NCBI GenBank assembly: GCA_002310235.1
Contig: DBYO01000036.1
Location: 54,226-118,225, forward strand
From: Bacteroidales bacterium UBA1184
Lineage (GTDB): Bacteria > Bacteroidota > Bacteroidia > Bacteroidales > ML635J-15
Direction: 5' to 3'
DNA length: 64,000 nt
In this document: piece after piece, positions 8,736 to 62,399 of the stretch
Numbering within the stretch: the stretch's first letter is position 1
How the letters are laid out: each line of letters starts with the position of its first letter
The notes under the pieces: model-generated
Seen by the model: only the letters and a program-made list of their open reading frames with translations
Told to the model about the DNA's origin: nothing
The model's database searches: none
Position numbers and translations under genes: made by a program

Positions 8736-8878
8736 GTTGAAAGTTAAAGAGTTAAAAGTTAATAGTCTGTCCATCAAATCCTCAATCTTTAGCTCGGCGT
8801 AAGCCAAATCATCGAACCTTGAACGTTAAACGTTAAACCAGAACGGCGAAGCCCTCAACGAAGTTAAACGTGAAACAG
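8736..8878. repeat. Intergenic 7/8-mer tandem-repeat element with CTTTAGCTC-hairpin core
   Basis: gttaaa arrays, ctttagctcggcgtaagcc at 8787-8805, ggcgaagcc at 8845-8853. Core recurs at 32691, 38624(-), 49819, 61571, 62178, 62312(-), 62333(-). Confidence 0.7.
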
Positions 8879-8948
8879 TCGTCTGCCATTCACATCTCTT
8901 TGTTGGTACTTTTTTTGCAGAACGCCAAAAACGACGGAATAAATTACA

Positions 8949-8956
8949 TATTTTTG
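8949..8956 (+). promoter_or_regulatory. Bacteroidota -7 promoter element (TAnnTTTG) upstream of the GH3 gene
   Basis: TATTTTTG 28 nt before the ATG at 8985. Confidence 0.55.
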
Positions 8957-8984
8957 GCGGTTAAAATAGGCAAAGAATAAGAAA

Positions 8985-11954
8985 ATGAGAAAGATAGTAG
9001 CCATATTGATATTTATTGCCGCATTTTCGTGCATAGGAATGACGGTTGCCATGAGCGAGGTCGAGCGAACCGATTTTGTTCCAACCGAAGAGCCATGGTT
9101 TTGGAATATGGACATTTCGTGGGTTGATTCCACTTTGCAGAAAATGACTCTAGATGAGAAGATTGCTCAGCTGATAATGATACCGGTATATTCCAATAAA
9201 TCGGCATCGTACAATTCCGAAGTTGTAAAACTTGTCGAGGAATACCAACTTGGCGGCGTTATATTCATGCAGGGAGGTCCTGGTCGTCAGATAAATCTTG
9301 TAAACCGTCTGCAAAAAGTTAGCAAGGTCCCGCTGCTTGTTGGTATGGATGCCGAGTGGTCGTTAAGCATGCGTCTCGACAGCGTGGTGATGTATCCGCG
9401 ACAGATGCTTGTGGGTGCAATTACCAACAATGCGCTGGTATATGACATGGGCGCCGAATATGCACGTCAGCTAAAGCGAGTAGGAGCCAACGTAAACTTT
9501 GCACCGGTTTTAGATGTAAACGTAAATCCTGCAAATCCGGTTATAAACGACCGTTCATTTGGCGAAAACAAGTACAATGTTGCCGAAAAAGGCTGGATGT
9601 ATGCCAAGGGAATGCAAGATAATGGTGTGTTGGCTGTTGGTAAGCATTTCCCAGGTCACGGCGATACCAATGTCGATTCACACAAGGCTATGCCTGTTAT
9701 CACGCACGACCGCGACAGGCTCGATTCTATAGAATTATATCCTTTCCGCTATTTGTCGGAGAAAGGTGTTGGCGGTATGATGGTTTCTCACCTTTTCATA
9801 CCTTCAATCGATCCCACCGAAAATCTTCCTGCAACGCTATCGCCAAAGGCAATAAAAGAGGTGTTGCGAAAAGATGTAAACTTCCACGGAATGGTGTTCT
9901 CCGATGCAATGAACATGGGTGGTATAGTGAACTATTTTAAGGGTAACGAAGCCGACGTGATGGCTTTGCTAGCTGGCAACGACATGATTATGTTCCCAAC
10001 CGATGTGAAGGATGTTATTGAAAAGTTGAAGTCGGCAATCGACGAGGGCAAAATTTCGGAACGCGATATTGATGAAGCTTGTAACCGCGTGTTGCTTACC
10101 AAGTTGCGCCTTGGGCTTAACAAAGGTTATGAGCCTATTTCTTCGAAAAATGTGCATTCTGACCTTAACGATGTACAAGCTCGCCTTATGCAGCAGCATC
10201 TGATTGAAAATGCTCTGACTCTTGCAAAAAATCAGGATTCGCTGGTACCTTTGCAAAGGCTTGATTCTGTTAAAATAGCTTCAATATCTTTCGAGAGCAC
10301 CGAGCCGACCTTTTTCCAGAAAAGATTGCGTTATTATGCTGATGTAAAGAACTTTGTGTTTTCCAAGGATTTTAAAGGATTGACAGCAGAGCAGCGTAAG
10401 AAAAAACTGGCGGCATACGATATCGTCATAGTGAGTGTACATAGCAATAATCAGCGCTCGGTAGCTAAGAAATTCGGAATTTCGCAGGCGACAATGGATG
10501 CTGTTGACGAAATTCTTGCAAATTGCGAAAATGTGGTCTTCGACCTATTTGCTAACCCCTACGGACTAGCATATTTTAAGAACATCGACAAGGCAAAATC
10601 AATAATTGTTTCGTACAACGATTGGGAGATAACAAACGATTTTTCGGCTCAGCTTGTATTTGGTGGAATCCCTGCATGCGGAGTGTTGCCTGTTTCACCT
10701 ACCGAGAATATAAAAGAGGGCATGGGCGAGCAGACACAGAAAATACGTCTTAAATATTCAAAAATTCCTGAGGATGCAGGTGTAAGTTCCGAAGTAATCC
10801 ATAAGGTTGATTCAATTTTCAAGAGCGGTATTCATACCAAGGCATATCCGGGCGGACAAGTTGTACTTGTGCGAAATGGAATCGTAATATACCAAAAATC
10901 AATGGGATACCACACTTACGATGAAGATATAAAGGTTGATGACTTCGATGTTTACGACCTTGCTTCTCTCACCAAGGTAATTGCCACAACTTCCGACATC
11001 ATAATGCTTTACGATGAAGGTAAGTTCAAGATTACTGATAAGGTTTCCGACTATTACGATGTGTGGAAAAATTCCAACAAGTCGCACCTTACATTTTGGC
11101 AGGTGCTTACGCACAGGGCTGGATTAAGGTCGTGGATTCCGTTCTACAAGAAGACCATGGACGAGGAAATGTATCCTAAGATTTACAGCGATACCAAGTC
11201 GGATAAATATTCCATTCAAGTTGCCGACGACCTCTATATGGCAAAGTCGTACAAGGACGAAATGTTCCGTCTCATACGCGAGTCGGCGTTGGAAAACAAG
11301 GGCAAGTACGTTTATTCCGACCTCGGCTTCATTGTTATGCCATACGTCATCAAGGAAATTTCAGGAGAAGATTATGTTGATTATACATATAGAAATGTTT
11401 TCAAACCATTAGGAGCATACTCGCTGTGTTTCAATCCGTTGGACAGATACAAGCTGGAACAGATAGTTCCTACAGAGGATGACAATTATTTCCGTATGCA
11501 ACAGCTTCACGGCCATGTTCACGACCAGGCGGCGGCAATGCTTGGCGGAGTGTCGGGACATGCTGGTCTGTTTGGCAATGCCAACGACCTTGCCAAGATA
11601 ATGGAAATCTATCTCGAAAATGGTAAGTACGGTGGCGTTCAATATTTTTCAGATACAGCCGTACAACGTTTTACCGAATATTATTATGAACCGACATTCT
11701 GCCGTCGTGCCTTGTGCTGGGACAAGCCTGTGCCCGATCGCTCGAAGGGAAACGGGAGCAAAAGTTCGTCGGACAAGTCGTTTGGTCATACAGGATACAC
11801 AGGCACCTTGGTATGGGCCGATCCCGAATACAATATGGCTGTAGTTGTTCTTACAAATCGTGTTTATACAAGTTCCGAAAACACGAAAATTATGAAGCAG
11901 AACATACGTACCAATATCGAGGAGGCTTTATATAATTCAATAATAAAGAATTAG
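8985..11954 (+). CDS. nagZ: GH3 beta-N-acetylglucosaminidase (NagZ-type) fused to a beta-lactamase-like serine hydrolase
   Basis: KHFPGHGDT..DSH (NagZ His/Asp dyad), FSDAMNM nucleophile region; C-terminal SxxK (ASLTK), YSD and GHTG motifs. Confidence 0.88.
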   Translation: MRKIVAILIFIAAFSCIGMTVAMSEVERTDFVPTEEPWFWNMDISWVDSTLQKMTLDEKIAQLIMIPVYSNKSASYNSEVVKLVEEYQLGGVIFMQGGPGRQINLVNRLQKVSKVPLLVGMDAEWSLSMRLDSVVMYPRQMLVGAITNNALVYDMGAEYARQLKRVGANVNFAPVLDVNVNPANPVINDRSFGENKYNVAEKGWMYAKGMQDNGVLAVGKHFPGHGDTNVDSHKAMPVITHDRDRLDSIELYPFRYLSEKGVGGMMVSHLFIPSIDPTENLPATLSPKAIKEVLRKDVNFHGMVFSDAMNMGGIVNYFKGNEADVMALLAGNDMIMFPTDVKDVIEKLKSAIDEGKISERDIDEACNRVLLTKLRLGLNKGYEPISSKNVHSDLNDVQARLMQQHLIENALTLAKNQDSLVPLQRLDSVKIASISFESTEPTFFQKRLRYYADVKNFVFSKDFKGLTAEQRKKKLAAYDIVIVSVHSNNQRSVAKKFGISQATMDAVDEILANCENVVFDLFANPYGLAYFKNIDKAKSIIVSYNDWEITNDFSAQLVFGGIPACGVLPVSPTENIKEGMGEQTQKIRLKYSKIPEDAGVSSEVIHKVDSIFKSGIHTKAYPGGQVVLVRNGIVIYQKSMGYHTYDEDIKVDDFDVYDLASLTKVIATTSDIIMLYDEGKFKITDKVSDYYDVWKNSNKSHLTFWQVLTHRAGLRSWIPFYKKTMDEEMYPKIYSDTKSDKYSIQVADDLYMAKSYKDEMFRLIRESALENKGKYVYSDLGFIVMPYVIKEISGEDYVDYTYRNVFKPLGAYSLCFNPLDRYKLEQIVPTEDDNYFRMQQLHGHVHDQAAAMLGGVSGHAGLFGNANDLAKIMEIYLENGKYGGVQYFSDTAVQRFTEYYYEPTFCRRALCWDKPVPDRSKGNGSKSSSDKSFGHTGYTGTLVWADPEYNMAVVVLTNRVYTSSENTKIMKQNIRTNIEEALYNSIIKN

Positions 11955-11956
11955 TA

Positions 11957-12517
11957 ATGAAGAAGATACTGCTGTCCATATTGCTATCGTTGTTTACAAT
12001 GGTACTTAGTGCGCAGTATCTCGAGAAGGAGCCACCGCCATCGCCGGTGCAACGTATATTTTGGGGTGGTAACCTCGACATGGGTTTCGGTACGGTGACA
12101 CAGATTTCGCTAAGCCCCGAGGTCGGTTATAGGATAACAAACAGGCTTTCGGCAGGCGTTGGCATCGACTATATGTTTGTCTATTCTGAGTATTACAATT
12201 TTAAGGGAAGTATTTTTGGTGGCTCGGTGTTTGCCAGTTTCACAGTGATAAAAAGCCTTGGAGAACTTATACCGTTTATTGGTACTGACATGGGCATACT
12301 CATTTACGGGCAATTTTCATACACCAACATGGGCAAGTTCTATACGGCGCTTTCGGGCGAAGAACCTATGTGGATTGCCTCGCCAATGCTCGGACTGGGC
12401 TTTCAGGTCCCCATAGGACAGCGGTCGTACATGGTGCTGTCGGTGATGTACAATTTCGATGAGTCGATGTACTCAATCTATTCCAATCCGGTTGTAAAAG
12501 TAAGCTATCAGTTCTAA
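11957..12517 (+). CDS. Hypothetical outer-membrane beta-barrel protein
   Basis: Signal peptide, alternating hydrophobic strands (FWGGNLDMGFG, LSPEVGYR), C-terminal SYQF. Confidence 0.7.
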   Translation: MKKILLSILLSLFTMVLSAQYLEKEPPPSPVQRIFWGGNLDMGFGTVTQISLSPEVGYRITNRLSAGVGIDYMFVYSEYYNFKGSIFGGSVFASFTVIKSLGELIPFIGTDMGILIYGQFSYTNMGKFYTALSGEEPMWIASPMLGLGFQVPIGQRSYMVLSVMYNFDESMYSIYSNPVVKVSYQF

Positions 12518-12542
12518 AAAGGTTTTGCCTTTTTAGAACTGA

Positions 12543-12734
12543 GTTTCAATGCCTTCGGCGTTTCTAAGTTTCATGTTTTAATGGCTGCCGCCATTTCATG
12601 TTTCACGTTTCTGTGAGTAATGTTTCGCAGTTTGATGTTTTTTATTATTAAGTTTATGATGTTTTGGAAATTGGAACAATTTCAAACCACCTAGAAACTT
12701 GAAACTAGAAACCAGAAATTTTGAAACCAGAAAC
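12543..12734. repeat. Gene-less inverted heptamer-array element (GTTTC arrays facing GAAAC arrays)
   Basis: Left gtttcaa/gtttcta/gtttcat/gtttcac units with gccttcggc and ggctgccgcc spacers; right tagaaac/ttgaaac/tagaaac/cagaaac units. Confidence 0.65.
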
Positions 12735-12773
12735 ATATCAATTTTATCCATTGCCAGTTCTCGGAGAAAATAT

Positions 12774-12781
12774 TAATTTTG
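12774..12781 (+). promoter_or_regulatory. -7 promoter element of the ruvA-sprA operon
   Basis: TAATTTTG with TTG at 12751-12753, 20 nt upstream (-33/-7 spacing). Confidence 0.65.
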
Positions 12782-12806
12782 CGCCTTAATTTATTTTAGG
12801 ATAACT

Positions 12807-13394
12807 ATGTACGAATACGTAAAAGGTCTTGTCGTAGAACTTAATCCAGCTTACGCAGTGGTTGAAGTTGGCGGCATAGGCTATTTTGTGAATATAAGCC
12901 TCACTTCCTATTCTTCCATGATACAGGGAGAGCAGACACAATTATATCTACATCAAGTTGTTAGAGAAGACGCTCATTTGCTATTCGGGTTTGTTACAAA
13001 AGTGGAGCGCGAGCTTTTCCGTCAATTGATTACAGTTAACGGAGTGGGTCCGAATACAGCTCGTCTGATATTGTCGTCGCTCACGCCTCAGGAGTTGACA
13101 AATGCAATACTTAGCGAAAATCTTGTCAAGCTGAAGAGCGTAAAAGGTATAGGTGCAAAGACAGCCCAGCGTATCATTATAGACTTAAAGGATAAGATAA
13201 ATTTGTCGGGAGAGTACGATACAGCAGAAATTTTTGCTGCTTCGGACAATACAATCAAAAAAGATGCGTTATTAACATTGAATACCCTTGGCTTCTCGAA
13301 GGCTGCGGTGGAAAGAGTGCTTGATAAAGTGTTGAAAGAAAAGCCGGATGCTTCTCTCGAAACAGTTATCAAGTTGGCGTTGAATTATTTGTAG
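12807..13394 (+). CDS. ruvA: Holliday junction branch migration protein RuvA
   Basis: VREDAHLLFGF, LITVNGVGPNTA, VKGIGAKTAQRII helix-hairpin-helix motifs. Confidence 0.97.
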   Translation: MYEYVKGLVVELNPAYAVVEVGGIGYFVNISLTSYSSMIQGEQTQLYLHQVVREDAHLLFGFVTKVERELFRQLITVNGVGPNTARLILSSLTPQELTNAILSENLVKLKSVKGIGAKTAQRIIIDLKDKINLSGEYDTAEIFAASDNTIKKDALLTLNTLGFSKAAVERVLDKVLKEKPDASLETVIKLALNYL

Positions 13395-13403
13395 AAAAGA
13401 ACA

Positions 13404-24590: not shown

Positions 24591-27524
24591 TTAGTAGTTG
24601 AAAACTTCGTCAACTGTTAGTTCCTTAACGTCACCGTAAGTCTTGAGTAGGTTGAAATCAACCTTTTCCTTCGGACCAACAATCATGATATCGAAGGTCT
24701 TGCCGGTGATGTGTTCGTTGAAGAACTTGGTTGCATCTTCGAGAGTGAAGTTCTTTACTGCATCGTAAACTTCCTTGCGGTAGTCGTTTTCGATTCCGAG
24801 TTCCTTATTTGCAAGATAGTTCCAGAAGATACCGCTCTTTATGATTCTTTCGGTGTTAATCTGGCTGATAATTGCCTGACGGCTGATTTCGAACGATTCG
24901 GGCGACTGCTTGAGTTCGTTCATGAGTTCGCCAAGAGCTTCGAGAGCTTCCTTCATCTTGTCGGGCTGGGTGCTGAGGTAGCCGATTACGTAGTTGGATT
25001 CATCAATCTTAGATGCTTCGTTGTAGCCTGCGTAGCAGCCGTATGCCAAGCTCTTTGCTTCGCGGATTTCCTGGAATACTATGCTCGACATCGAACCACC
25101 GTAGTATTCGTTGAACATTGTCGAAATTGGCATCAACGACTTGTCGAACTTAACATCCTTCGAAACCAATTCGATGAATACCTGTGTCATCGGGTAGTTT
25201 ACAAAGAGAACCTGTGGCTTGTCGTAGTCGCGTTCTACATACTTCTTTGCTTCTGGATAATCCTTGTATTCGCCAGAAACGTTGTGGTTTTCCTTTATAA
25301 CTTTAACAACATCGTCCATCTTGCGCGGACCATAGTAGAAGATTTGGTGCTTGTAGTTGAGCATACCTTTTATAATATTGGTAAGTTCTTCGGGGTCGAT
25401 TGCTTTAAGTTCTTCCTCGCTGAGGTTGTTTGTGAAGCGTGATTCCTCGCCATACTTCGAACGTGAAACAAGACCGCCAAGGATAGCATTCTTGTTAAGC
25501 TTATTGTTGGCACGTCCCTTAAGGATGCTGTTTACATATTCGTCGTAAACTTCCTTGTCGGGCTTAACGTTTGCAAGGATTTCTTCCATAAGCTTCATTG
25601 CAGTTTCAAGGTTCTCGTCGAGACCGCTGATGTAAACATAGCATCTGTCTGAACCGCTGCTTACATAGAAGTTGCAACCGAGACGATACCATTCTTTTGC
25701 CAAATCGTCAACAGTTTTTTCTGTAGTGCCGAGGTAGTCGAGATAATCGACTGCGAGAGCCAATTTCTTGTCGTTGTCCTTACCCATATCGAGAATGTAG
25801 TACAATGAGAACAATTCATTTGTTTCGTTCTTAATGTAGCTCATTGGCAAATCCTTTGCAATGTCGGTAGTTTGGATTTTTGCCTTGTAGTCAACAAATT
25901 CGGGGCTGATAGCAGCAGGTTCCTGCTTCTTGAGTTCGGTTACGAATGCCGATTCGCTTCCGCGGTCGATGTTGAGCTGAGTGATGGCTGGCTTGTCAAC
26001 GTGCATTACGTTGTCGGGTTCGCCCATGCGCTTGTAGGCAACAAGGTAGTTGTCCTTGAAGAATTCGTTTGCAAACTTTACAAGTTCGTCCTTTGTCATC
26101 TTTTCGTAGTTCTCGATGTCGAAGATTTCTTCTTCCCAAGGAGTCTGAGAGATGAATGAGTTTACAAACGAATAAGCTATTCTATTGCCTTCAATCTGCT
26201 TAATCTGATCGAGTTTCATTTCGTTTACAATAGCTTCGAGCAGCCATTCGTCGAATTCACCCTTCTTAATCTTTTCGAGTTCTGCCATAAGCAAGTCCTT
26301 AACTTCTTCGAGGCTCTGACCATCGCGTGGCATACCAACCATTTCGAACATTCCGTAGTCGTTGAGAGAATAGCCGTATGCGTATGCGCGCATTACCTTC
26401 TGAGCGGTGTTGAGGTCGAGGTCCATAAGGCCAGCCTTGCCATTGTAGAGTATCTGTCCAATCATAGATAAGTATTTCGATTCCTGTGACTTGTTACCCT
26501 GTGAACGCCATACAACGCATACATTTTCAGGTTCTGGTCCGTGGATTTCGAATTCTTCTACTGCAGTACGTTCCTCTTCGGGAGTGTAGGTAAATTCAGG
26601 AATGTTGTCGTTCTTCTGCATGTGTCCCCAGTACTTGTCGATAATCTTTACGGTTTCTTCGAAATCGAGGTCACCCGACATACATATTGCGATGTTGTTA
26701 GGAACATAGTAGTTTGCCTTGAACTTCATTACGTTTGCCATCGACGGGTTTTTCAAGTGTTCGCCCTTGCCGATGATAGCGGTTCCGTAAGGATGGTTCT
26801 TGAAGAGTTTTGCGAAAATGGTGTTGCTGAGTCTGCGGCCGTCGCGGTCCTGGTTCATGTTGAACTCTTCGAAAATTGTTTCGAGTTCGGTGTGGAAGAG
26901 ACGGAGAACAAGGTTTTCGAATCTTTCGCTCTCAACCTTTGCCCAACGGTCGATTTCGTTGGATGGAATTTCGTTTACATAAACGGTTTCTTCGTACGAT
27001 GTCCAAGCGTTTGTGCCTGTAGCGCCGAGAATCGAGCAGATCTTGTCGTACTCGTTAGCGATTGCGTACTGCGAAGCAACCTGCGAAAGGCTGTCGATCT
27101 GAGCATAGATAGCAGCTTTCTTTTCCGGGTCGGTTTCGGCAGCGTGTTCTTCAAACTTGTCGCTGATTGCCTGAATGAGAACGCTTTCTTTTTCCCAGTC
27201 CTTTGTTCCAATCTTATCGCTACCCTTGAACATCATGTGTTCGAAGTAGTGGGCAAGACCTGTTGTTTCGCGTGGGTCGTTCTTTGCACCGGCTCTTACT
27301 GCGATGTAGGTTTGTATTCTCGGTTCGTCCTTGTTTACGGCAAGGTATATTTTCAAACCGTTGTCCAATGTGTAGATTCTTGTTCCCGATGGGTCGTTTT
27401 CTACATATTCGTAGCTGTAACCGTTGGCGTCTTTGGCAGTCTTGGTTTCGTGTCCTGTTTTACCCTTTTTGCAGCCTACCATTACAAGTGCGAATACTGC
27501 TAAAATTAATACTAAATGTCTCAT
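24591..27524 (-). CDS. M16 (insulinase/pitrilysin family) zinc peptidase, lipoprotein
   Basis: Inverted zinc motif HxxEH (GLAHYFEHMMFKGS), NAWTS, lipobox MVGC. Confidence 0.92.
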   Translation of the reverse strand: MRHLVLILAVFALVMVGCKKGKTGHETKTAKDANGYSYEYVENDPSGTRIYTLDNGLKIYLAVNKDEPRIQTYIAVRAGAKNDPRETTGLAHYFEHMMFKGSDKIGTKDWEKESVLIQAISDKFEEHAAETDPEKKAAIYAQIDSLSQVASQYAIANEYDKICSILGATGTNAWTSYEETVYVNEIPSNEIDRWAKVESERFENLVLRLFHTELETIFEEFNMNQDRDGRRLSNTIFAKLFKNHPYGTAIIGKGEHLKNPSMANVMKFKANYYVPNNIAICMSGDLDFEETVKIIDKYWGHMQKNDNIPEFTYTPEEERTAVEEFEIHGPEPENVCVVWRSQGNKSQESKYLSMIGQILYNGKAGLMDLDLNTAQKVMRAYAYGYSLNDYGMFEMVGMPRDGQSLEEVKDLLMAELEKIKKGEFDEWLLEAIVNEMKLDQIKQIEGNRIAYSFVNSFISQTPWEEEIFDIENYEKMTKDELVKFANEFFKDNYLVAYKRMGEPDNVMHVDKPAITQLNIDRGSESAFVTELKKQEPAAISPEFVDYKAKIQTTDIAKDLPMSYIKNETNELFSLYYILDMGKDNDKKLALAVDYLDYLGTTEKTVDDLAKEWYRLGCNFYVSSGSDRCYVYISGLDENLETAMKLMEEILANVKPDKEVYDEYVNSILKGRANNKLNKNAILGGLVSRSKYGEESRFTNNLSEEELKAIDPEELTNIIKGMLNYKHQIFYYGPRKMDDVVKVIKENHNVSGEYKDYPEAKKYVERDYDKPQVLFVNYPMTQVFIELVSKDVKFDKSLMPISTMFNEYYGGSMSSIVFQEIREAKSLAYGCYAGYNEASKIDESNYVIGYLSTQPDKMKEALEALGELMNELKQSPESFEISRQAIISQINTERIIKSGIFWNYLANKELGIENDYRKEVYDAVKNFTLEDATKFFNEHITGKTFDIMIVGPKEKVDFNLLKTYGDVKELTVDEVFNY

Positions 27525-32629: not shown

Positions 32630-32786
32630 GGATTTAATGATTTAAAAATTCAAAAATTCAATTATCTAATGATCAACTTTATTAAACAACCTTCAGCTCA
32701 GCGAAGCAAAATTTTCAAATCTTCAAATTATTGAATCCTTGAATCCTTGAATTTTTAAATCAGCAAAGCTAATCCTTGAAATTTTC
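32630..32786. repeat. Intergenic octamer-array element with GCGAAGC mini-hairpin core
   Basis: ttgaatcc-ttgaatcc-ttgaattt-ttaaatc array; cttcagctcagcgaagca at 32691-32708; similar to 49785-49878. Confidence 0.65.
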
Positions 32787-38341: not shown

Positions 38342-38439
38342 ACACATACTATTTTGAGGTCGTAAATTTAATTTAAATAATCGGATTACGGAAAATAATG
38401 TTAATTATTTTATTCAATGTTTAATGTTCAAATGCTTGC

Positions 38440-38815
38440 AGGCATACCGGCTCGCTGTCAAGCAGGCTCGAAGGCTAACAGACTTGCAGTCTTACGGTCT
38501 AACAGACTTGCTGTCCCACGGGTTTGCTGCCAGACTGCTCGACTAGCCTTTAGCTGGACTTTTTCTGTGTTTCTGTGGCTTCGCCGTTTCTATGTGCTGC
38601 GCACGTTTCTATGTTTCACGTTTGACTTCGTCGAGCTAAAGGTTCGTGAAATTCGTGGTAAAACATTTCGTTTTGGGCCTCGCGAAAAACCCCTGTTGTC
38701 TTATGCGGTGAGCTGAGCCTGTCGAAGCATTGTTCATATTGTCGTTTCTTTCTTTTACGACAGCTTGCAGTGATGAGATCGCGGATAGCTTGATTCTCAT
38801 CGCTTCCGCGATGAC
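38440..38815. repeat. Composite intergenic patchwork of several repeat families
   Basis: cagacttg units, gtttct arrays with mini-hairpins, GxxExxY-type right end (38624-38690), ctgagcctgtcgaag, gagatcgcgg...ccgcgatgac half-REP. Confidence 0.6.
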
Positions 38816-38940
38816 GTCAAAAAAAGGGGCATTGTGAGTTTCAATTATTCTCGCCTTTTCTCCCAATGTTTTGTTTTTCGGTTTGTGGTACGATTTTGTT
38901 AAGAATATTTTTTACATTTGCCCCGATACAATATTTTGAT

Positions 38941-39766: not shown

Positions 39767-39899
39767 CTATAAACACAAAAAATCCCCCGCATCTTGCGAT
39801 ATGAGGGATTCGGTAGATTAGTTTTATGAGATTATTTTCTGATGTCTAATTCGTTGATGAGGTTCTTAGCTCCGTAGAGTTCATCGATTACCCAAAGTA
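39767..39899. repeat. Direct repeat copy 1: last ~22 codons of dpp7 plus its terminator
   Basis: 39803-39899 is identical (97 bp) to 49905-50001; the adjacent hairpin differs by 2 substitutions and a 2-bp indel. Confidence 0.95.
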
Positions 39900-49718: not shown

Positions 49719-49784
49719 AACATTGAACTTTAAATAAACATCCCAAAGATAAAACAAATTCGTTTTAAACTGCAAATGATTTAT

Positions 49785-49878
49785 TAAATTTTTGAATTTT
49801 TAAATCAGCGAAGCTAACCTTTAGCTCGGCGTAAGCAATTCTTGAACCCTTGAACCTTTAAACTTTTTAACTATAAAC
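49785..49878. repeat. Octamer-array/mini-hairpin repeat at the island boundary
   Basis: agcgaagct, ctttagctcggcgtaagca (49819-49837), ttgaaccc-ttgaacct-ttaaactt-tttaact. Confidence 0.7.
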
Positions 49879-50001
49879 AAAAAATCCCCCGCATCTTACG
49901 ATACGAGGGATTCGGTAGATTAGTTTTATGAGATTATTTTCTGATGTCTAATTCGTTGATGAGGTTCTTAGCTCCGTAGAGTTCATCGATTACCCAAAGT
50001 A
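49871..50001. repeat. Direct repeat copy 2 (functional dpp7 3' end plus terminator)
   Basis: See copy 1; minus-strand hairpin aatccctcgtatc-GTAA-gatgcgggggatt followed by a T-run. Confidence 0.95.
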
Positions 50002-52211: not shown

Positions 52212-54200
52212 TTAAAGTTTTATAAAATTAGTTTTAAAGGTTGATTCCTCCGATGTTATAGTTATTGTATAATGTCCAGGAGCAAGCGACGATACATCAA
52301 TGCTCGAAACTTCTCTTACAGAACGACTTACAAACATTACTTTGCCGTTTTCGCTTATGATTTCAATGTCGTAGGTGCCATTCTCGGGAAGGTTGATGTT
52401 AAGCATGCTGGAAGTAGGATTCGGGTATATGCTTATGAAATCGTTATCGAATTCGTTGACTCCTTGGTCTGTTGTTATTGTCATGTAGTTGTTTACTCGC
52501 TTGAAGTCGCTACAGATAGAATCTTCCGAATATGCAGTAAGTTTTACTGGGAAGGTACCTGCATTGTAGTATGTTACCTGCGGATTCTGTTCGCTTGATG
52601 TTGCTGGTATTGCACCTTCGAATTCCCAGCTCCAGTAGAACGAATTTTCGCTAAGGTCGTTGAACTGAACTATCTGGCCTCTGGCTGCTGTGGTATTTGC
52701 AGCTTCGAAATTTGCAATTACAAGACCTACCACCTTTATATATTCGTCCTTTGTGATTCTGTCGCTATCGACTTCATTGTATGCAGTGAGTTTTACCGAG
52801 TACATGCCTTCGGTGTTGTATGTAACCACTGGGTTTGGATCGGTCGAAAACTCAGGAGTTCCACCGAAGAACTGCCACTGGATGCTTGTTGTGTTTGTAG
52901 CTGCGGAGTGGAAAGTTACGGTTTGACCTTCGCATATTGCGGTAATGTCGGCGGTGAAGTCAGCGGTAACTGTTCCGTGAACAATAATCATTTCGTTTAT
53001 TGTTTTGGTAATTTCGCAGTTGTCGTTCGATACGGTGAGGGTTACGCTATATGTTCCTGGCGTGTTGTACCTTATCGTCGGATTCTGCTCGTTCGATGTC
53101 GATGGCGTTCCGCCCGGGAACGACCACGACCATGTTGTCGGATCTTGTGTCGAGAGGTCGGTGAAGTGTACCTGTTCTCCTTCGATGATTTCTGTAGCGT
53201 CGGCTGTGAAGTCGGGGACAATCGGTGCCGGCTCTTCGGGAAAGGAGGGCATTTCGTCGTCGTTTACAGTAATTGGATTATCAATTGTGAGCTGACGTAG
53301 TTTTGCTTTCAGCGTTATTCCGCTTCTAGTGTATTTTTCGTTTGTGATCCAGAGTCTGCTGCTGTCGCGGAATGCGATTCCTTCGGTTTGATTATATCTG
53401 ATGATGTCGGTCAGACCTACCGACGACAATTCGGTAGTCTCTACTGTTCCCGAGAAGAATTTGTTGCCTTCGAAGTTACGCAGTAGGGTGAGGTATGGCC
53501 TCGATTCGGGGATTAATCCCGACACATCGTAGGTATAACCGAGGAGTGACACTGTGTTTGTGCGGTAGTCGTAGTCGGCAGCGCATACAAGATAGTCGAG
53601 ATGTAATGTGTCGATAGGCGTAATTGTGTGGAAATAATTCGCCTTGTTTGGTATAGCGTACAGATACACATCGTGGTCAACCCAGTTCTTAGAGAAGAGG
53701 AACAAGGTGTCGTCCTTGGCAATGAAGGCTTCGCAGTCGAAGCGAGTGTTTGTCACCGAGTAATCGGGTTCCGGATAGTCGGGGTTGCCATAGGTGAAAT
53801 TAATAATACGCGGTTCGATAGTGCTGAGTTCCGAATTTTCAAGATCTTCGATCTTTATTCGGATGATACGCGGATTAGTATTCATTGCACCAAAGTCGCC
53901 TATGTAAATGTTGGTTGCATCCTTGGCAAGGTCTTCCCAGTCGATGTTTGTTACGCCCGAGATAGTCTTGCGTTCCAATATTTCACCTGTAGCGGTATCG
54001 ATGCTGTAGAGGACAGGTTCGCCTTCCGAGTCGTTGTGCGTCCATAGCTTTCCATTGTGGAAGATAAGACCTGATGTTTCTTCTATTTCGTTGGGCAGTT
54101 CGCCTACCAGTATTGTTGCTGAACTTACCTGTGCAAACGATGCGCCTATGCTTACCAATAGAATTGCTGCTGCTGCGATCAGTTTCTTTATTGCTGTCAT
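52212..54200 (-). CDS. T9SS cargo: N-terminal beta-propeller-like domain, 3 PKD domains, type A CTD
   Basis: ETSG..HNGKLWTHNDS, DWED, YIGDFG; PKD 'WSWSFPGGTP..NP...YNTPGTYSVTL'; CTD IYPNPTS...FIKL. Confidence 0.85.
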   Translation of the reverse strand: MTAIKKLIAAAAILLVSIGASFAQVSSATILVGELPNEIEETSGLIFHNGKLWTHNDSEGEPVLYSIDTATGEILERKTISGVTNIDWEDLAKDATNIYIGDFGAMNTNPRIIRIKIEDLENSELSTIEPRIINFTYGNPDYPEPDYSVTNTRFDCEAFIAKDDTLFLFSKNWVDHDVYLYAIPNKANYFHTITPIDTLHLDYLVCAADYDYRTNTVSLLGYTYDVSGLIPESRPYLTLLRNFEGNKFFSGTVETTELSSVGLTDIIRYNQTEGIAFRDSSRLWITNEKYTRSGITLKAKLRQLTIDNPITVNDDEMPSFPEEPAPIVPDFTADATEIIEGEQVHFTDLSTQDPTTWSWSFPGGTPSTSNEQNPTIRYNTPGTYSVTLTVSNDNCEITKTINEMIIVHGTVTADFTADITAICEGQTVTFHSAATNTTSIQWQFFGGTPEFSTDPNPVVTYNTEGMYSVKLTAYNEVDSDRITKDEYIKVVGLVIANFEAANTTAARGQIVQFNDLSENSFYWSWEFEGAIPATSSEQNPQVTYYNAGTFPVKLTAYSEDSICSDFKRVNNYMTITTDQGVNEFDNDFISIYPNPTSSMLNINLPENGTYDIEIISENGKVMFVSRSVREVSSIDVSSLAPGHYTITITSEESTFKTNFIKL

Positions 54201-54211
54201 ATTGTTGTGGT

Positions 54212-57200
54212 TTATAATTTTATGAATTTAAATGTTTTCGTTCCGTTTTCGGTGTTAATGATGAGATTGTAGTTGCCGGCAGGCAAAGCCGATACGTCGA
54301 TAGTTGAAATATTTTCAATATGTTCGTCCGACTCTAGCAACAATGCTCCTGTCTGTGCGCATATTGTATATGAATACGGTATTCCGCTGTTGTCGATATT
54401 CAAAGTTCCTGATGTTGGGTTGGGGAATACCGAGAAGTGGCTTGATATTTCGTCAATGCCTTGGCTGGCGCTGTCGGTTACCTCGATGAGGTTTTCAACG
54501 ATTATCCTGTCGCTGCAGTGTTCATTCCATGCTTCGAGCGATACCCAGAATGTGCCGATGGTATTGTATTGGATTGTTGGGTTAAGTTCGGTTGATACGC
54601 TTGGGTTTCCGCCTGCAAATACCCATTCAATTCTGTCGGCATTGGAGCACTGGCTTGTGAATGTCACTTGTCCGCCTACTGCGATTGTGGAGTCGGAGAT
54701 TGCAAAGTCGGCAATAGCTGCAGGATAAACTGTTATCATGCTGTCTATTGCCATGTACTTGCTGGTTGCAGGATTCATAACTTGGAGGCTTACTCTATAT
54801 GTTCCCGGTTCGTTGTATGTAATAGTTGGGTTTTGCTCGTCTGATATTTCGGGTGTTCCCCCTTCGAATTCCCAGTGACGATAAGTTACAGCTCCCAGAT
54901 TGTTGGTGCTTCTGAATCTAATCTCTCCGCCTGCGCATGCTTTTGTGGTGTCGGCAGTGAAGCTGAATTCTATCTGTGGATAAACGGTTATGCTGTATTC
55001 AACTTGTTCGCCAACACAGAATTCATTGCTAGCAACAAGAGTTAAGCCGTATTCGCCTGGACGGTTGTATGTTATGCTTGGGTTCTCCTCGATTGAAGTG
55101 CTAGGATTTCCTCCTTCGAATGTCCACATCCATGAAGTTGCGTTTACGCTTGCGTTATTGAAAGTTACGGTATCGCCAACTGTTGCAAATTCATCTTCGG
55201 GAAGCATTATTAATTCAGTACGAACTCGTGGTACAACTTCGATATAGTTCTCCATTACGACAATTGTGGTATCGACTGGATTAGTTGCAATTAGCACTAC
55301 ATTGTAAGTTCCTGGAGTGTTGTAGGTTACTGTTGGGTTTTGTTCGGTTGATGATTCGGGTGTGCCGCCTACAAACATCCAGTTGTATGCAGTTACGCCT
55401 TCGCCTGTGCCTTCGAAATGTACTTCATAGCCTGCGCATAGTGTGTCGATGTCGGCAGTAAAGCTTGCGCTAATTGGCGGATAAACAGTTACAGCCTGTT
55501 CGAGCAGAGTGGTTTGTTCGCAGGTTCCGTTGTCGGTTGTGAGCGATATGGAGTATGTTCCTGGTTCTTCGTAAGTTACCATAGGGAATTGCTCTTCAGA
55601 AGTTGCAGGTGTGCCGCCTTCGAATTCCCAGTGCCACCATACTTCGTTGCCTTCGCCAGGTTCTGTTGCAAACATAAGAGATTCTCCTTGAGCTACGTCC
55701 ATTCCTTGTAGGGCTATAATGTTTGCTTCTGAGTGGGGCACTACCTGTATGTAGTTTTCGATTGTGATTGTGTCGGTGCTAAGCGGATTATTTACGACCA
55801 TCGTAACTCCGTACAGACCAGGGTTTTCATACATTACTATTGGGTTGGCTTCTGTTGATGTTTCGGGATTTCCTCCTTCGAAGTACCATTCTATTTCGTA
55901 TGCGCCCAAGCTATTGTCGTAATATTCAACAGGTTCGTTTACACATGCTGCCATGACGTTGGATGTGAAAGCTGCAGTGGCGGTATCAAGTACGTGTATG
56001 TATTTCGATTTTGTCTTTGTGAGCTGGCAGTTGTCGTTGGTTGCCCTTAACGAAACATTAAACTGTCCAGCAGTGTTGTATCTTATGGCAGGTGGTGTCT
56101 GCACGGTCGACGACGATGGTGTTCCACTCGTGAATGTCCATCGGTAGGCTGTTGGGTTTTGTGTGCAACTTTCGGTGAAATTCACACTTTGTCCTCTGAG
56201 AATCAAGGTGTCGCTGGCTTCGAAGTTGATTACGATGGCTGGCGGTTCTTCGGGGTACGACGGCTCTTCGTCGGTATTCACTATTGGAAGTCCGCTAAGT
56301 GGAATTTCCCTGAGATGTGCCGGAATTGTTAGCGCTTGTATCCCCTGTATGCTTCTTGTATATCGTTCGTTTGTAATCCATAGGCGACCGCTGTCGCGGA
56401 ATGTAACGCCTTCAATCTGGTTGTAGGTGATTCCTGTCGATTGGAATATTATCGATGTGGGGCTTGTGTATTCTTTTGTTTCAACCTGTCCCGACTGGAA
56501 ATCATGTCCTGTGAATCCGTAGAATATTGTTATATACGGATTTGAAGTTGGGATTGTGCCGTCGTCGTAGGTGTATCCGCAGAGGGCAACCGAGTTGGTC
56601 GCATAGTCGTAGTCGGCACCGGTGACCATGTATTCGAGCTGTATGGTATCGATAGGATACAGCGTAGTATATGTGTAGTTAGCCTTGTTGGGAATTGCGT
56701 AAACGTAGCAATCCTGGTCTCTCCAGTTTTTGGTGAAGATGTATATTGTGTCGTTCATTACCATCATGGCTTCGCAGTCGAATTTGGTGTCGTTCTTGGC
56801 TGCGTCCGATTCGGGATAGTATGCCGAATTGAACCTGAACGATATGCTTCTTGCGTCAATAGTATCAAGGTCGGGGTTTTCAATGTCTTCCCATTTTACC
56901 CTGTGTATCTTCATGTTAGTCCTTTTTCCGCTGATATTGTTTCCAAAATCGCCTATGAAAAGGTGTGTCGGGCTTTTGGCTACGTCTTCCCAGTCGGAGT
57001 AGCTAACTCCTCTTATCACTTTACTTTCGAGTATTTCTCCTGTTGCTGTGTCGACAGAGTAGATTTTGGCTTCGGTTCCCGAGTCGTTGTGAGTCCACAA
57101 TTTTCCGTTGTGGTAAATAATTCCTGATGTTTCCCAAATGCTTTCATCAAGATCCTGCACAAGCATTTGCGGAGTGCCAATTACTTGTGCCTTAAGGCTT

Positions 57201-57247
57201 AATGCATAGGCCGTAATTGCCAAAAGCAGTATAAGTCTGTGCTTCAT
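54212..57247 (-). CDS. T9SS cargo paralog: same N-terminal domain, 7 PKD domains, type A CTD
   Basis: Same N-terminal motifs; seven 'W.FEGG.P..S.E.NP...Y..PG.Y' units; CTD VFPNPTS...FIKL. Confidence 0.85.
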   Translation of the reverse strand: MKHRLILLLAITAYALSLKAQVIGTPQMLVQDLDESIWETSGIIYHNGKLWTHNDSGTEAKIYSVDTATGEILESKVIRGVSYSDWEDVAKSPTHLFIGDFGNNISGKRTNMKIHRVKWEDIENPDLDTIDARSISFRFNSAYYPESDAAKNDTKFDCEAMMVMNDTIYIFTKNWRDQDCYVYAIPNKANYTYTTLYPIDTIQLEYMVTGADYDYATNSVALCGYTYDDGTIPTSNPYITIFYGFTGHDFQSGQVETKEYTSPTSIIFQSTGITYNQIEGVTFRDSGRLWITNERYTRSIQGIQALTIPAHLREIPLSGLPIVNTDEEPSYPEEPPAIVINFEASDTLILRGQSVNFTESCTQNPTAYRWTFTSGTPSSSTVQTPPAIRYNTAGQFNVSLRATNDNCQLTKTKSKYIHVLDTATAAFTSNVMAACVNEPVEYYDNSLGAYEIEWYFEGGNPETSTEANPIVMYENPGLYGVTMVVNNPLSTDTITIENYIQVVPHSEANIIALQGMDVAQGESLMFATEPGEGNEVWWHWEFEGGTPATSEEQFPMVTYEEPGTYSISLTTDNGTCEQTTLLEQAVTVYPPISASFTADIDTLCAGYEVHFEGTGEGVTAYNWMFVGGTPESSTEQNPTVTYNTPGTYNVVLIATNPVDTTIVVMENYIEVVPRVRTELIMLPEDEFATVGDTVTFNNASVNATSWMWTFEGGNPSTSIEENPSITYNRPGEYGLTLVASNEFCVGEQVEYSITVYPQIEFSFTADTTKACAGGEIRFRSTNNLGAVTYRHWEFEGGTPEISDEQNPTITYNEPGTYRVSLQVMNPATSKYMAIDSMITVYPAAIADFAISDSTIAVGGQVTFTSQCSNADRIEWVFAGGNPSVSTELNPTIQYNTIGTFWVSLEAWNEHCSDRIIVENLIEVTDSASQGIDEISSHFSVFPNPTSGTLNIDNSGIPYSYTICAQTGALLLESDEHIENISTIDVSALPAGNYNLIINTENGTKTFKFIKL

Positions 57248-57298: not shown

Positions 57299-57333
57299 AA
57301 AAAGCAACTGCAAACATTGTTGCAGTTGCTTTT
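57299..57333 (-). terminator. fbp terminator (bidirectional shape)
   Basis: aaaagcaactgcaa...ttgcagttgctttt. Confidence 0.8.
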
Positions 57334-57353
57334 GTCCGTTATTGTATTTGGTC

Positions 57354-58376
57354 TTAGTCACCATATTCTGACATAAATTCTTCTACTTTCTCAACCATTT
57401 CCTTAGAGCCGACAACGAATGGTGTACGCTGGTGTATTTCGGTAGGAACGATGTCGAGGATGCGGTGTCCATATCCGTCGGTTGCCTTGCCGCCAGCTTG
57501 TTCGGCGAGGAAAGCAATCGGGTTGCATTCGTAGAGCAGACGGATTTTTCCGTTTGGCGACGATGCGGTGCGCGGATAGATATATACACCACCCTTGAGC
57601 AGATTTCTGTGGAAGTCGGCAACCAAAGAACCGATGTAGCGCGAAGTGTAAGGACGGCTTGTCGGCTTGTCGATTTCCTGAACATATTTCAAGTACCTCT
57701 TGATTCCTTCGGGGAATTTGAGGTAGTTACCTTCGTTAATCGAGTAAATCTTGCCCTTTTCTGGAGTTACCATCAGTTCGTTCGACATGCAGAACTCGCC
57801 GATTGACGGTTCGTAGGTGAAACCTGTGGTTCCGAGACCAGTTGTGTAAACGAGCATTGTTGACGAACCGTAGATTATGTAACCTGCTGCCACCTGCTTG
57901 TTGCCGGGCTGTAGGAAGTCTTCCTTTACAACTCTGGTGCCTGGCTTCGAAATACGGCGGTAGATTGAGAATATTGTACCAACCGATACGTTAACGTCGA
58001 TGTTTGAGCTTCCGTCGAGAGGGTCCATGCAGATGACGTAGTTGCTGTTGAGCGAAAGCTCATCGTCGAAGATGATGATGTCGTCTTCTTCTTCGGAAGC
58101 GATACCAGCCACCATACCTGAAGCTTGCAAAGCCTTGGTGAACATTTCTTCGGCGAACACATCGAGTTTTTGCTGGGTTTCGCCCTGCACGTTGATGTTG
58201 TCGGTAGCGCCGAGGATGTTGGTCTCGAGGCCGGCACGGTTGATACTGTTGTTTACGATTTTAGCAGCAAGACCAATGTTGCTTAAAAGTCTCGACAATT
58301 CGCCCTTTGCATATTTGAAAGCCGATTGTCTCTGAATTATAACCTCGTCAAGGGTTATGAATCTGTTTGTAGCCAT
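57354..58376 (-). CDS. fbp: Class 1 fructose-1,6-bisphosphatase
   Basis: [55 protein letters not shown]; ATG at 58376 (MATNRF). Confidence 0.96.
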
Positions 58377-58462
58377 GATAATTTTATTGTTTTTTTGTTC
58401 GTTTTTCGTCTTTAAATAAAACACGAAAGTACGTCTTTTCTTTTACATGGGCAAAACAATTC

Positions 58463-61476: not shown

Positions 61477-61702
61477 ATGAAACACAAAGATAATGAATTT
61501 TTTGTTCCTCGCGGTGCTCGGAATGATTTTTTACCACGAATCATTAGAACGGTGTTTTTTTACCACGAATCTTTAGCTCGGTGTAGCCAATCGCACAAAT
61601 AGACACGAATGGTTTTTTTCGGCAAGCCGGTTATCCTCTATTCGTGCAAATTCGTGTAATTCGTGGTCATTGTTTATTTTTTGAGCGCAGCGAAAAACTT
61701 TA
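61477..61702. repeat. Left palindromic direct repeat of the GxxExxY cassette
   Basis: aacacaaagata, ttcctcgcggtgctcggaa, accacgaat, ctttagctcggtgtagcc, cggcaagccg, attcgtgcaaattcgtgtaattcgtggt, ttgagcgcagcgaaaaacttta. Confidence 0.85.
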
Positions 61703-62077
61703 TAGTACAATTCGTTTTATTACAACCCCATCCCTTTCCCCAAAATTCACAAGCATGCCTAATTTTATTCCACTTGCTTTTAAGTAATTCATAATTTGAG
61801 CAATATGAGCATCCATTAATTGAGATACGGATTTAAGTTCAAGAATTATTTTGTCGTAACATACAATATCTGGAATAAAAGTGTGTTGCAGTATGATGTC
61901 ACGATAATGTATCTTTATTTCTGGTTTTGAAACGAACGGGATGCCACGCCTATTAAGTTCGTGTTCTAAAGCTTCGTGATAAACACTTTCCAGGAATCCG
62001 TTTCCTAAGATGTTATACACGTCATATATAGAACGTGTTATTTCGTATGATTCTTTTTTGTATATAATTTCTGCCAT
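61700..62077 (-). CDS. GxxExxY protein (PD-(D/E)XK nuclease fold)
   Basis: GFLESVY motif, PD..(10)..ELK catalytic pattern, QIMNYLKAS, GMLVNFG. Confidence 0.93.
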   Translation of the reverse strand: MAEIIYKKESYEITRSIYDVYNILGNGFLESVYHEALEHELNRRGIPFVSKPEIKIHYRDIILQHTFIPDIVCYDKIILELKSVSQLMDAHIAQIMNYLKASGIKLGMLVNFGERDGVVIKRIVL

Positions 62078-62090
62078 ATTTTTTTATGTT

Positions 62091-62301
62091 TATGAACACA
62101 AATATATACTTATTTTTTATTCCTCGCGGTGCTCGGAACGATTTTTTTTACCACGAATCTCACGAATCCTCACGAATCTTTAGATCGGCGTAGCCAATAT
62201 TTTTTTCGGCTTGCCGAAAAATTGCAAGCTATTCTTCATTCGTGCAAATTCGTGTTATTCGTGGTCGTATTTTATTCGTTTTGAGCTTGCAAAAAACTTT
62301 A
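62091..62301. repeat. Right palindromic direct repeat of the GxxExxY cassette
   Basis: Same ordered blocks as 61477-61702, offset 615 bp at the ttcctcgcgg block; contains the gene's -7 element (TATATTTG, 62099-62106, minus). Confidence 0.85.
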
Positions 62302-62311
62302 TTTGTGTTAT

Positions 62312-62399
62312 TGCTTACGCGAGCTAAAGGTTGGTTACGCCGAGCTAACGGTTCGTGGTTGTGTTATTCCTTCTAGTTTTGAGCATAGCGAAAAAACTT
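62312..62399. repeat. Partial third repeat: two inverted cores plus right end
   Basis: tgcttacgcgagctaaag, ggttacgccgagctaacg, ttcgtggt...ttttgagcatagcgaaaaaactt. Confidence 0.7.

Follow-up and report, generated by a model that had tools for sequence, protein, structure and literature searches.

Short extragenic hairpins that occur in about 100 or more copies, are specific to a clade or species and carry a conserved sequence on the 5' side of the hairpin are known as repetitive extragenic palindromic (REP) elements; within bacterial interspersed mosaic elements (BIMEs) they alternate in orientation, and they are associated with the REP-associated tyrosine transposases (RAYTs) (PMC2817692). 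A repeat family that shares these traits was found in a window of 64,000 nucleotides from Bacteroidales bacterium UBA1184 (positions 54226-118225 of contig C13 of its 2.82-Mb, 53-contig assembly; this genome is called G000). Each unit of the family has a constant 10-nt head, C-CTTTAGCTC, which is followed by a tiny stem-loop; the nine-mer CTTTAGCTC is here called the box. The family also resembles REP/BIME-RAYT systems in its mosaic clusters, its rapid turnover and the presence of a RAYT-family gene in the same subclade. It differs from them in that its units are far smaller (3-bp stems, 21-27 nt) and are arranged head-to-tail, not as alternating or inverted doublets, and in that no RAYT is flanked by box units, none is present in G000 and the abundance of the units within the clade is independent of the gene. 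The REPINs of Bertels and Rainey 2011, which are named beside the REP/BIME elements, are said to be such REP doublets. The best reading of the family is that it is an undescribed, REP-like, non-autonomous hairpin element of single-stranded DNA (ssDNA), and a literature search yielded no paper in which its repeat words appear in a relevant setting.

The d(GCGNAGC)/d(GCGNNAGC) mini-hairpins of Hirao and colleagues obey the same loop and closing-pair rules as the units of G000, and a review of these structures records such motifs in hairpin promoters and where the ssDNA replication of phages starts (PMC13037366). Elsewhere the d(GCGNAGC) motif is a single functional site, whereas in G000 it is a high-copy genomic repeat whose folding is predicted from sequence.

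Yeast mitochondrial GC clusters are grouped with the hairpin elements of sponge mitochondria, and the short tandemly repeated repetitive (STRR) sequences of cyanobacteria are short tandem heptamer arrays. The mitochondrial hairpin elements of sponges are likewise tiny and GC-rich, invade AT-rich intergenic DNA, differ between close relatives and have no mobility gene (PMC2800124), but these elements and the GC clusters are organellar and have neither a conserved 10-nt head nor 17-nt periodic arrays. Intergenic tandem arrays of 7-8-nt words with an unexplained origin are also described for the TAACTGA heptamer repeats (PMC4679880), and tandem word arrays in the Bacteroidota for BrickBuilt of Porphyromonas gingivalis, a minisatellite inside a MITE (miniature inverted-repeat transposable element) (PMC4596501). 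These systems use words other than the AGAAAC, TCAAAT, CGTAAAT and CACGAAT words of G000, and the G000 arrays stand apart from STRR, TAACTGA and BrickBuilt arrays in being interleaved with covarying mini-hairpins and in often forming long imperfect palindromes. Classification of the units themselves as MITEs was rejected: they measure 21-27 nt compared with 100-400 bp, have no terminal inverted repeats besides the hairpin, and no related insertion sequence was found.

The Box Unit Is a Dispersed Repeat of Defined Length

The genes referred to below are crude in-house calls of open reading frames and the assemblies are draft metagenome-assembled genomes; the public runs that contain window sequence are bovine gut metagenomes. 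In a genome-wide motif scan the 12-mer form of the box, AACCTTTAGCTC, was counted 66 times in the 2.8-Mb genome, with 64 copies being intergenic, which bears out the proposal of the first-pass annotation that the copies in the window belong to a genuine dispersed family. Exact box cores numbered 80 compared with approximately 22 expected from base composition. AACCTTTAGCTC is among the three most frequent non-trivial 12-mers of G000, and other top 12-mers are AACGGCGAAGCC (82 copies), AAACTTAGAAAC (68) and CTCAACGAAGTTAA (51).

Five exact boxes are located in the window, at 8787, 49819 and 61571 on the plus strand and at 38633 and 62321 on the minus strand. Only 0.35 are expected, and none of 100 shuffles reached five. 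When one mismatch was allowed, 19 matches were found in the window compared with 12.5 expected, a number reached by 5 of 100 shuffles and not significant alone. Three of the one-mismatch copies, CTTCAGCTC at 32691, CTTTAGATC at 62178 and CGTTAGCTC at 62342 on the minus strand, were accepted as genuine because of their context, each being preceded by AAC or AAT and followed by a mini-hairpin and then by AA. The eight copies and their stems listed by the first-pass annotation are all present, with the stems GGC-GTAA-GCC at 8796, GC-GAA-GC at 32701, GAC-GAA-GTC at 38624 (minus strand), G(GC-GTAA-GC) at 49828, GGT-GTA-GCC at 61580, GGC-GTA-GCC at 62187, GC-GTAA-GC at 62313 (minus strand) and the degenerate GGC-GTAA-CC at 62333 (minus strand). 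The four extra mini-hairpins that it had placed at 8845, 12551 (minus strand), 38594 (minus strand) and 49807 were found as well.

AAC precedes 65 of the 74 intergenic exact boxes and AAT three more, while a hairpin directly follows 56 of the 74 and is itself followed by AA in 54 of these 56 cases. The unit was therefore delimited as a block of 21-27 nt that stands after AA and reads C-CTTTAGCTC-stem-loop-stem-AA. In an exact-length test, units were excised, their flanks were joined and the resulting 28-mer was sought elsewhere in intergenic DNA with at most two mismatches. Precise excision resulted in a recurring 28-mer for 20-25 of 54 units, compared with just 0-1 when the excision was made 1-4 nt too long or too short.

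Filled and empty forms of the same site were also identified. The site CTCAACGAAGTTAA/AC is empty in 32-37 copies and occurs in filled form too. The loop of an unrelated palindrome is empty in CGGATTTATAATCCG and elsewhere contains two different units, CGGATTTATAA(CCTTTAGCTCGTTGCTTAAGCAACAA)(CCTTTAGCTCACTGCCAAAGGCAGTAA)TCCG, with the units in parentheses. The arm of a palindromic element made of CACGAAT words is filled in the window of G000, ACCACGAA(TCTTTAGCTCGGTGTAGCCAA)TCGCACAAAT with TCGCAC after the unit, and an uninterrupted three-word arm is found in G023 and G007. In the spacer upstream of the gene at 8985, G008 is without the box unit and without one 8-nt word. Gain or loss of the box unit as a block of exact length is shown for six or more different sequence contexts. 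The unrelated surroundings in which the unit is found, GAAAC, TCAAAT and CGTAAAT arrays, the palindrome loop, the CACGAAT arm and single-copy spacers, have just AA in common. The junction is ambiguous within AA(C), and the flanking AA..AA may or may not correspond to a 2-nt duplication. A relation of the left flank to the right hairpin arm that resembled a target-site duplication was dropped, as it is true of one sub-family only.

Hairpin Stems Covary and Loops Follow the Rules for Stable Mini-Hairpins

A perfect 3-bp stem with a 3-4-nt loop directly follows 45 of the 80 cores, compared with 3.5% of random genome positions. The stems range from 2 to 6 bp overall and include the types GGC/GCC, AGC/GCT, AAC/GTT and GAC/GTC and the longer GTTGC(C) and ACTGCC. 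Covariation was assessed by register-aware pair counts and Fisher tests, as a MAFFT alignment put triloop and tetraloop units together without gaps and hence was unsuited to pair counting. Compensatory change of the stems, which had been noted from the copies in the window, was confirmed at pair 1 (GC31/GT3/AC1/AT18, p=3.6e-10) and pair 2 (GC41/GT0/AC1/AT7, p=9e-8), with the reservation that the copies are related and many are near-identical, so that these counts overstate the number of independent compensatory events. Three tandem units in G009 have three different compensatory stems, AGC/GCT, GGC/GCC and GAC/GTC.

The G..A loops had been likened to those of the d(GCGNAGC)/d(GCGNNAGC) mini-hairpin. 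Indeed, a loop census and 7-mer enrichment identified them as the C-GNA-G and GNNA loops of this structure. After GAAAC, the loops in G000 are GAA (43), GTA (31), GCA (27), TTTA (18), GTCA (15) and GTTA (13). Every recurrent GC-rich hairpin type at this position has its loop closed by C-G. The 272 kb of intergenic DNA is enriched in just three of the GCNNNGC words, GCGAAGC, GCGTAGC and GCGCAGC (148, 71 and 59 copies), which reach 3.0-3.4 times their genic density, with all others at approximately onefold. Published mini-hairpin rules admit only GNA as a triloop, GTAA, GCAA and GTTA as tetraloops, and GC..GC or CC..GG as inner pairs; neither GNA triloops nor loops of the GTCA/GTTA type are stable motifs of RNA, both being motifs of DNA (PMC13037366). 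GTCA and GTTA also differ from the GNRA loops of RNA. As read from their sequence, the loops of the box units are shown to follow the published rules for exceptionally stable ssDNA mini-hairpins.

High Copy Numbers Occur Almost Only in One Subclade

Boxes number 30-83 in each of 15 genomes of the genus, and 14 of these are exactly the subclade of 14 species that was defined by 87-93% RuvA identity to G000. The outlier G012 (RuvA 57%, 8% contamination) has 35 boxes, the sister G030 (RuvA 84%) has five and counts in the rest of the family are 0-12. In nearly all of 298 other genomes of the order, AACGGCGAAGCC stays at or close to background (0-3 copies); exceptionally, one genome has 17 copies and a few have 6-10. 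High copy numbers are therefore essentially confined to one subclade of 14 species, with one outlier.

Box Units Are Part of Mosaic Arrays With Rapid Turnover

Box units are found in head-to-tail arrays of the same polarity, composed of 17-nt modules (xxAGAAAC plus hairpin) and of A-rich words of 7-8 nt. A typical mosaic in G000 reads GCCGCAGGC-ATAGAAC-GGCGAAGCC-CTC-AACGAAGTT-AAC-CTTTAGCTC-GGCGTAAGCC and continues with AAAC-CCAGAAAC-GGGCTTTAGCCC. Further arrays consist of the 7-8-nt words TCAAATC, CGTAAAT, CAACTTT, AAGGCT and CACGAAT, and these often make up long imperfect palindromes, in which words of the GTTTC type stand on the left and words of the GAAAC type on the right. When arrays in the intergenic DNA of G000 were marked by high-frequency 12-mers, 341-462 were obtained with a total length of approximately 25 kb; they are borne by 24% of the spacers of at least 30 bp and by 34% of those of at least 150 bp. 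At least three mini-hairpins are present in 59 spacers and at least eight in 12. Neighbouring hairpins are in the same orientation in 260 pairs and in opposite orientation in 10.

The arrays differ strongly between orthologous spacers. Upstream of ruvA, where the window contains the array 12550-12734, no array is present in G011, G022 and G026, the array is small in G008 and of medium size in G000, and about 20 hairpins are present in G027. In the spacer 38348-38865 arrays occur in G000 only, G008, G027 and G011 having none at the orthologous position, and the array of G008 that is homologous to 8734-8877 contains approximately 110 nt of extra hairpin units. It is shown by these comparisons that the arrays turn over faster than the species diverge.

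The large length differences at orthologous spacers would also be expected if no dedicated enzyme were involved and the arrays were hairpin-prone minisatellites, which grow and shrink by replication slippage and unequal recombination, with modules spreading by ectopic gene conversion; stable hairpins would then promote the slippage by which they multiply, and this would keep the stems paired. The tandem head-to-tail organisation with its 8- and 17-nt periods, the lack of an orientation preference and the fact that no enzyme co-varies with the repeats are consistent with such an origin. However, the same unit occurs in unrelated contexts that share just AA, which gene conversion between homologous arrays explains poorly, and more than 40 loci carry a 50-nt composite. 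An origin without a dedicated enzyme is regarded as improbable.

A strand logic of the arrays was considered and rejected. A token-level excess on the lagging strand (171 versus 101) vanishes once each array is counted once, and the counts per array show no bias with respect to either GC skew (22 versus 26) or flanking tandem genes (17 sense versus 12 antisense).

Alternatively, the arrays might not be selfish DNA and might instead be selected by the host as cis elements, acting as 3'-exonuclease barriers or RNA stabilisers, as transcription insulators or as arrays for a GAAAC-reading protein. They are located between terminators and promoters, a metatranscriptome contig that spans 12466-12812 covers at least one array end to end, and REP/BIME elements have such secondary roles (PMC2817692). 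On the other hand, the spacers of housekeeping genes may have an array in one species and none at the orthologous site of another, and arrays occur in either orientation to transcription, in the 17 to 12 proportion given above. Their loops are of the DNA type described above and no Rfam family was matched. Host selection of this kind in place of selfish spread is regarded as highly unlikely. Searches with Rfam 15 gave no match in the window at gathering thresholds and nothing relevant at 10 further repeat loci, where only one tRNA and one sub-threshold chance match were obtained. A resemblance to the D-arm of tRNA (CTTTAGCTCAGC) was dismissed as coincidence, the sole such match being one real tRNA.

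No Trans-Acting Enzyme Is Tied to the Units

In structural work on REP and RAYT, the transposases act on ssDNA hairpins with a conserved 5' flank. A 240-aa protein of G024 (L059:4723-5445) scored 95.8 bits against the NCBIfam model NF047646, 'REP-associated tyrosine transposase' (cut-off 80), and contains the HVHVL and Y motifs. Of the 14 box-rich species, 8 have a gene of this family, compared with none of 25 other species of the genus, and it always lies in one tight slot in the order Endonuclease_NS gene, RAYT, 205-aa gene. The syntenic slot of G000 (C37:3431-4714) contains a DUF1016/YhcG-like (PD-(D/E)XK) gene instead, and no RAYT is present in this genome. In G007, G011, G022 and G026 the RAYT reading frame is broken into two, and the gene is absent from the 99-100% complete G009 and G029. 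Mean box counts within the subclade are 60 with an intact, 56 with a broken and 59 with an absent RAYT gene. The phyletic profile of PF01797 was not discriminating, as 50 of 57 genomes were positive.

The units could accordingly be pictured as the REPs of a classical REP/RAYT system, in which a RAYT-family Y1 (HUH) transposase was gained at the base of the subclade and lost in G000, where the repeats would be relics. The G024 protein, the distribution over species and the described action of RAYTs on ssDNA hairpins with a conserved 5' flank (PMC2817692) speak for this. The slot of the gene is tight and without flanking repeats, however, whereas RAYTs are described as always lying between two inverted REPs (PMC2817692). 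Moreover, the slot of G000 is occupied by the DUF1016 gene, the gene is frame-split in four genomes and absent in G009 and G029, box counts are equal whatever its state, the association at the level of the clade is effectively one evolutionary event, and the hairpins are head-to-tail and not inverted doublets. This scenario is considered unlikely.

The only Y1 gene of G000, an IS200-like gene at C13:5139-5601, was rejected as a partner of the units, since its own end hairpins, GAAACCCCTAYGGGGTT and AACCTCTAACGAGGTT, occur at two loci only. The gene lies between these two hairpins at C13:4960-5700, and a gene-less 220-bp copy is found at C15:107120-107340. A MITE of 260-280 nt with the terminal inverted repeats ACTATTGTTGTCCGCTAAA is responsible for several presence/absence differences between G009 and G024 (for example at 27227-27492 of a concatenate, in the C7 region of G024); it carries an AACCTC-NNNN-GAGGTT hairpin that resembles one beside the IS200-like gene. 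In two of the few box-bounded intervals of G000 (C13:49411-50766 and C3:48235-49527) there are genes for ATPase-like proteins (430-451 aa) that have the nucleotide-binding motif GKSY and presumably resemble the AAA_14/DUF4143 family.

A CACGAAT Element, Not the Box Unit, Travels With GxxExxY Genes

The sole PF13366 gene of G000 is located in the window at 61700-62077 on the minus strand and encodes a 125-aa GxxExxY protein of the PD-(D/E)XK family (PDDEXK_3/TIGR04256). The region 61497-62300 consists of this gene between two copies of a palindromic element, the arms of which are three ACCACGAAT/ATTCGTG words. In element copy 1 (61497-61700), a TTCCTCGCGGTGCTCGGAA hairpin and the ACCACGAAT words are followed by an inserted box unit, T-CTTTAGCTC-GGT-GTA-GCC-AA (61570-61590), and then by the apex CGGCAAGCCG, ATTCGTG three times and GAGC-GCA-GCGA. 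Element copy 2 (62112-62300) is a direct repeat of copy 1, with 76-94% identity over blocks, and contains the box unit T-CTTTAGATC-GGC-GTA-GCC-AA at 62177-62197. Beside it, two tandem box units are present on the minus strand (62310-62351), CGTTAGCTC-GGCGTAACC-AA at 62331-62351 and C-CTTTAGCTC-GC-GTAA-GC-AA at 62310-62330. The GxxExxY orthologue of G027 (89.6% identity), which adjoins porP, has the same arrangement including the box, and both copy 2 and the tandem units are kept there.

Paralogues with 68% identity at other loci, in G023, G024 (a pseudogene) and G007, have a CACGAAT module directly 3' of the stop codon, GTTTTTCGC-NNN-GCTCAAAA...ACCACGAAT-nn-CACGAAT-nnn-CACGAAT, and in all three the arms are without a box unit. 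In other genera, approximately 10 of 10 GxxExxY loci examined are embedded in palindromic units of species-specific CAC-words, among them CACAGAG, CACGAAG, CCGCAGAG and CACAGTG. The CACGAAT element has only about 6-10 copies in G000. It is thus the CACGAAT-word palindromic element, and not the box unit, that travels with GxxExxY genes. The box unit does not belong to this cassette: its insertion into one arm is optional, and genomes that have no GxxExxY gene contain it in abundance.

From the four of eight window copies that surround the gene, the first-pass annotation had suggested a REP/RAYT-like partnership with the GxxExxY enzyme. The clustering is real, but it does not indicate a partnership: four boxes are found here because units were inserted into and beside the CACGAAT element, which is itself duplicated on both sides of the gene. 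Nor is the box a constant feature of GxxExxY flanks, being present at the G027 orthologue and absent from the G023, G024 and G007 paralogues, while distant homologues have other repeats. GxxExxY genes, scored as PF13366 matches, were detected in 8 of the 14 genomes of the subclade, one of them broken, and in none of the other six, which include the 99-100% complete G009, G026 and G029. They are present in 32 of 42 repeat-poor genomes, and outside the subclade the box count is 0-1 where a genome has 7-15 PF13366 genes and zero in the one with 15 copies. With repeat-rich genomes that have no PF13366 gene and PF13366-rich genomes that have no repeats, the proposed partnership fails in the co-occurrence check.

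A role of the GxxExxY nuclease in recognising and moving the units of CTTTAGCTC plus mini-hairpin, comparable to that of RAYT for REPs, could be argued from the gene being the only clear one in G000 between an inverted box pair less than 1 kb apart, and from the consistent embedding of such genes in palindromic word repeats in other genera, some with GC-GNA-GC mini-hairpins, e.g., TCGC-GTA-GCGA. Against it stand both sides of the phyletic pattern just described, the paralogues that retain the CACGAAT module without a box, and the 56 other genes of G000 that have arrays on both sides, so that such a role is very improbable. The mover of the units is not the neighbouring GxxExxY nuclease. A literature search found no paper that assigns a function to GxxExxY/PDDEXK_3, and none on GxxExxY cassettes with inverted arrays of CAC-words. 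If this view is correct, the mini-hairpin units and the CAC-word palindromes of GxxExxY genes can be told apart, which sharpens the question of the role of a very large uncharacterised nuclease family.

The spacer of G027 that is orthologous to window positions 8668-8984 contains four tandem palindromic elements with GACAAC/GTTGTC arms around a TTCCGAGCnnnGCGAGGAAC hairpin. This is the architecture of the CACGAAT element with other words, so that whole-word arms appear to covary.

Proposed Mode of Spread

The preferred explanation is that the copies of CTTTAGCTC plus hairpin are a lineage-specific, non-autonomous, REP-like repeat that was spread as an ssDNA hairpin unit, and it is given about an even chance of being correct. 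The unit would be copied as single-stranded DNA, and its constant 10-nt head would be the sequence that is read or cut by a trans-acting enzyme. The hairpin would serve as a structural handle, and only copies that keep their stem would go on multiplying, which could explain the compensatory stem pattern. Insertion beside units that end in AA, together with replication slippage, would result in head-to-tail mosaics.

In addition to the relatedness of the copies in the pair counts, several points weigh against this explanation. The filled and empty sites fit insertion and precise hairpin-stimulated deletion between flanking AA(C) repeats alike and cannot tell the two apart. Within the near-identical pairs G022/G026 and G009/G024 (96-99% identity, approximately 50 kb each) no array indel was observed and no single event was caught; the sole large indels in these comparisons are an unrelated MITE of 260-280 nt. 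No trans-acting enzyme is tied to the units, and in six relatives no box is found within 1.5 kb of the RAYT gene, which has no flanking repeats. To our knowledge, a mobile unit of 21-27 nt is without demonstrated precedent.

A further possibility, which is regarded as doubtful, is that the units are insertion modules smaller than any so far seen in a bacterial chromosome, namely ssDNA mini-hairpins pasted at AA by a domesticated RAYT in trans, without flanking repeats, or by host replication enzymes alone. They would then build whole intergenic mosaics and even nest within selfish elements of other kinds, for instance GxxExxY cassettes and further palindromes.

If spread as an ssDNA hairpin is correct, the family would be a clean natural case of a bacterial genome being shaped by the exceptional stability of the d(C-GNA-G) mini-hairpin, for which chemistry and a few phage origins have so far been the main sources; in one clade, roughly 9% of the intergenic DNA consists of these arrays. 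The repeat unit (approximately 22 nt, e.g., d(AACCTTTAGCTCGGCGTAAGCCAAAC)) would be small enough to be synthesised for tests of folding, protein binding and cleavage. In practical terms, the arrays break metagenome assemblies of rumen Bacteroidales, and Logan contigs end inside them.

Arrays and Other Repeats of the Window and Genome

The array at 8734-8877 (plus strand) is a mosaic of 7-8-nt words (GTTAAA, TTGAAC), a box unit and GAAC-GGCGAAGCC-CTC-AACGAAGTT-AAAC-GTGAAAC. Its box unit (8786-8807, plus strand) has AA(T) before it and consists of T-CTTTAGCTC, GGC-GTAA-GCC and AA. The array upstream of ruvA (12550-12734) is a palindrome of words and hairpins, with GTTTC words, GCCTTCGGC and GGCTGCCGCC on the left and AGAAAC/TGAAAC words on the right. 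At 32633-32767, TCAAAT/TTGAAT words form an imperfect palindrome with the box unit AAC-CTTCAGCTC-A-GC-GAA-GC-AAAA (32688-32712) close to its apex. The array at 38569-38690, read on the minus strand, contains half a CACGAAT element (TTTTACCACGAATTTCACGAAC), followed by the box unit CTTTAGCTC-GAC-GAA-GTC-AA (38622-38642, minus strand) and then by GAAAC with GTGC-GCA-GCAC and GGC-GAA-GCC units. The array of TTGAAT/TTAAAT words at 49777-49890 (plus strand) contains AGC-GAA-GCT (49807) and the box unit CTTTAGCTC-G-GC-GTAA-GC-AA (49818-49838, plus strand).

Elsewhere in G000, a third box context, GTCATTCCRCAAC-CTTTAGCTC-ACGCAGCGAAGCAAGTAAA, adjoins a long hairpin, GAACGAACAGCAnAAGGAACGnTGCTTGTGAGTTCGCTT; it has about six copies (sites include C13:22490, C15:70364, C32:55883, C34:14250 and C46:75980) and no Rfam match. 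At C5:102600-104400 a cluster of palindromic repeats (TCCTTTCGGATT...AATCCGAAAGG, then TTGAATATAAGGATTTnTAATCC) brackets a 291-aa gene, and some loops of these repeats contain nested box units.

The window also contains repeats of other kinds. A 130-nt direct repeat with 97% identity is present at 39770-39899 and 49872-50001, 10.1 kb apart. Nine copies of an 86-nt segment are found at 52545-55890 with a spacing of approximately 249 nt, within the minus-strand genes 52212-54200 and 54212-57247, which indicates tandem domains of approximately 83 aa. These two genes share blocks of 72-74% identity (53322-53741 versus 56351-56782).

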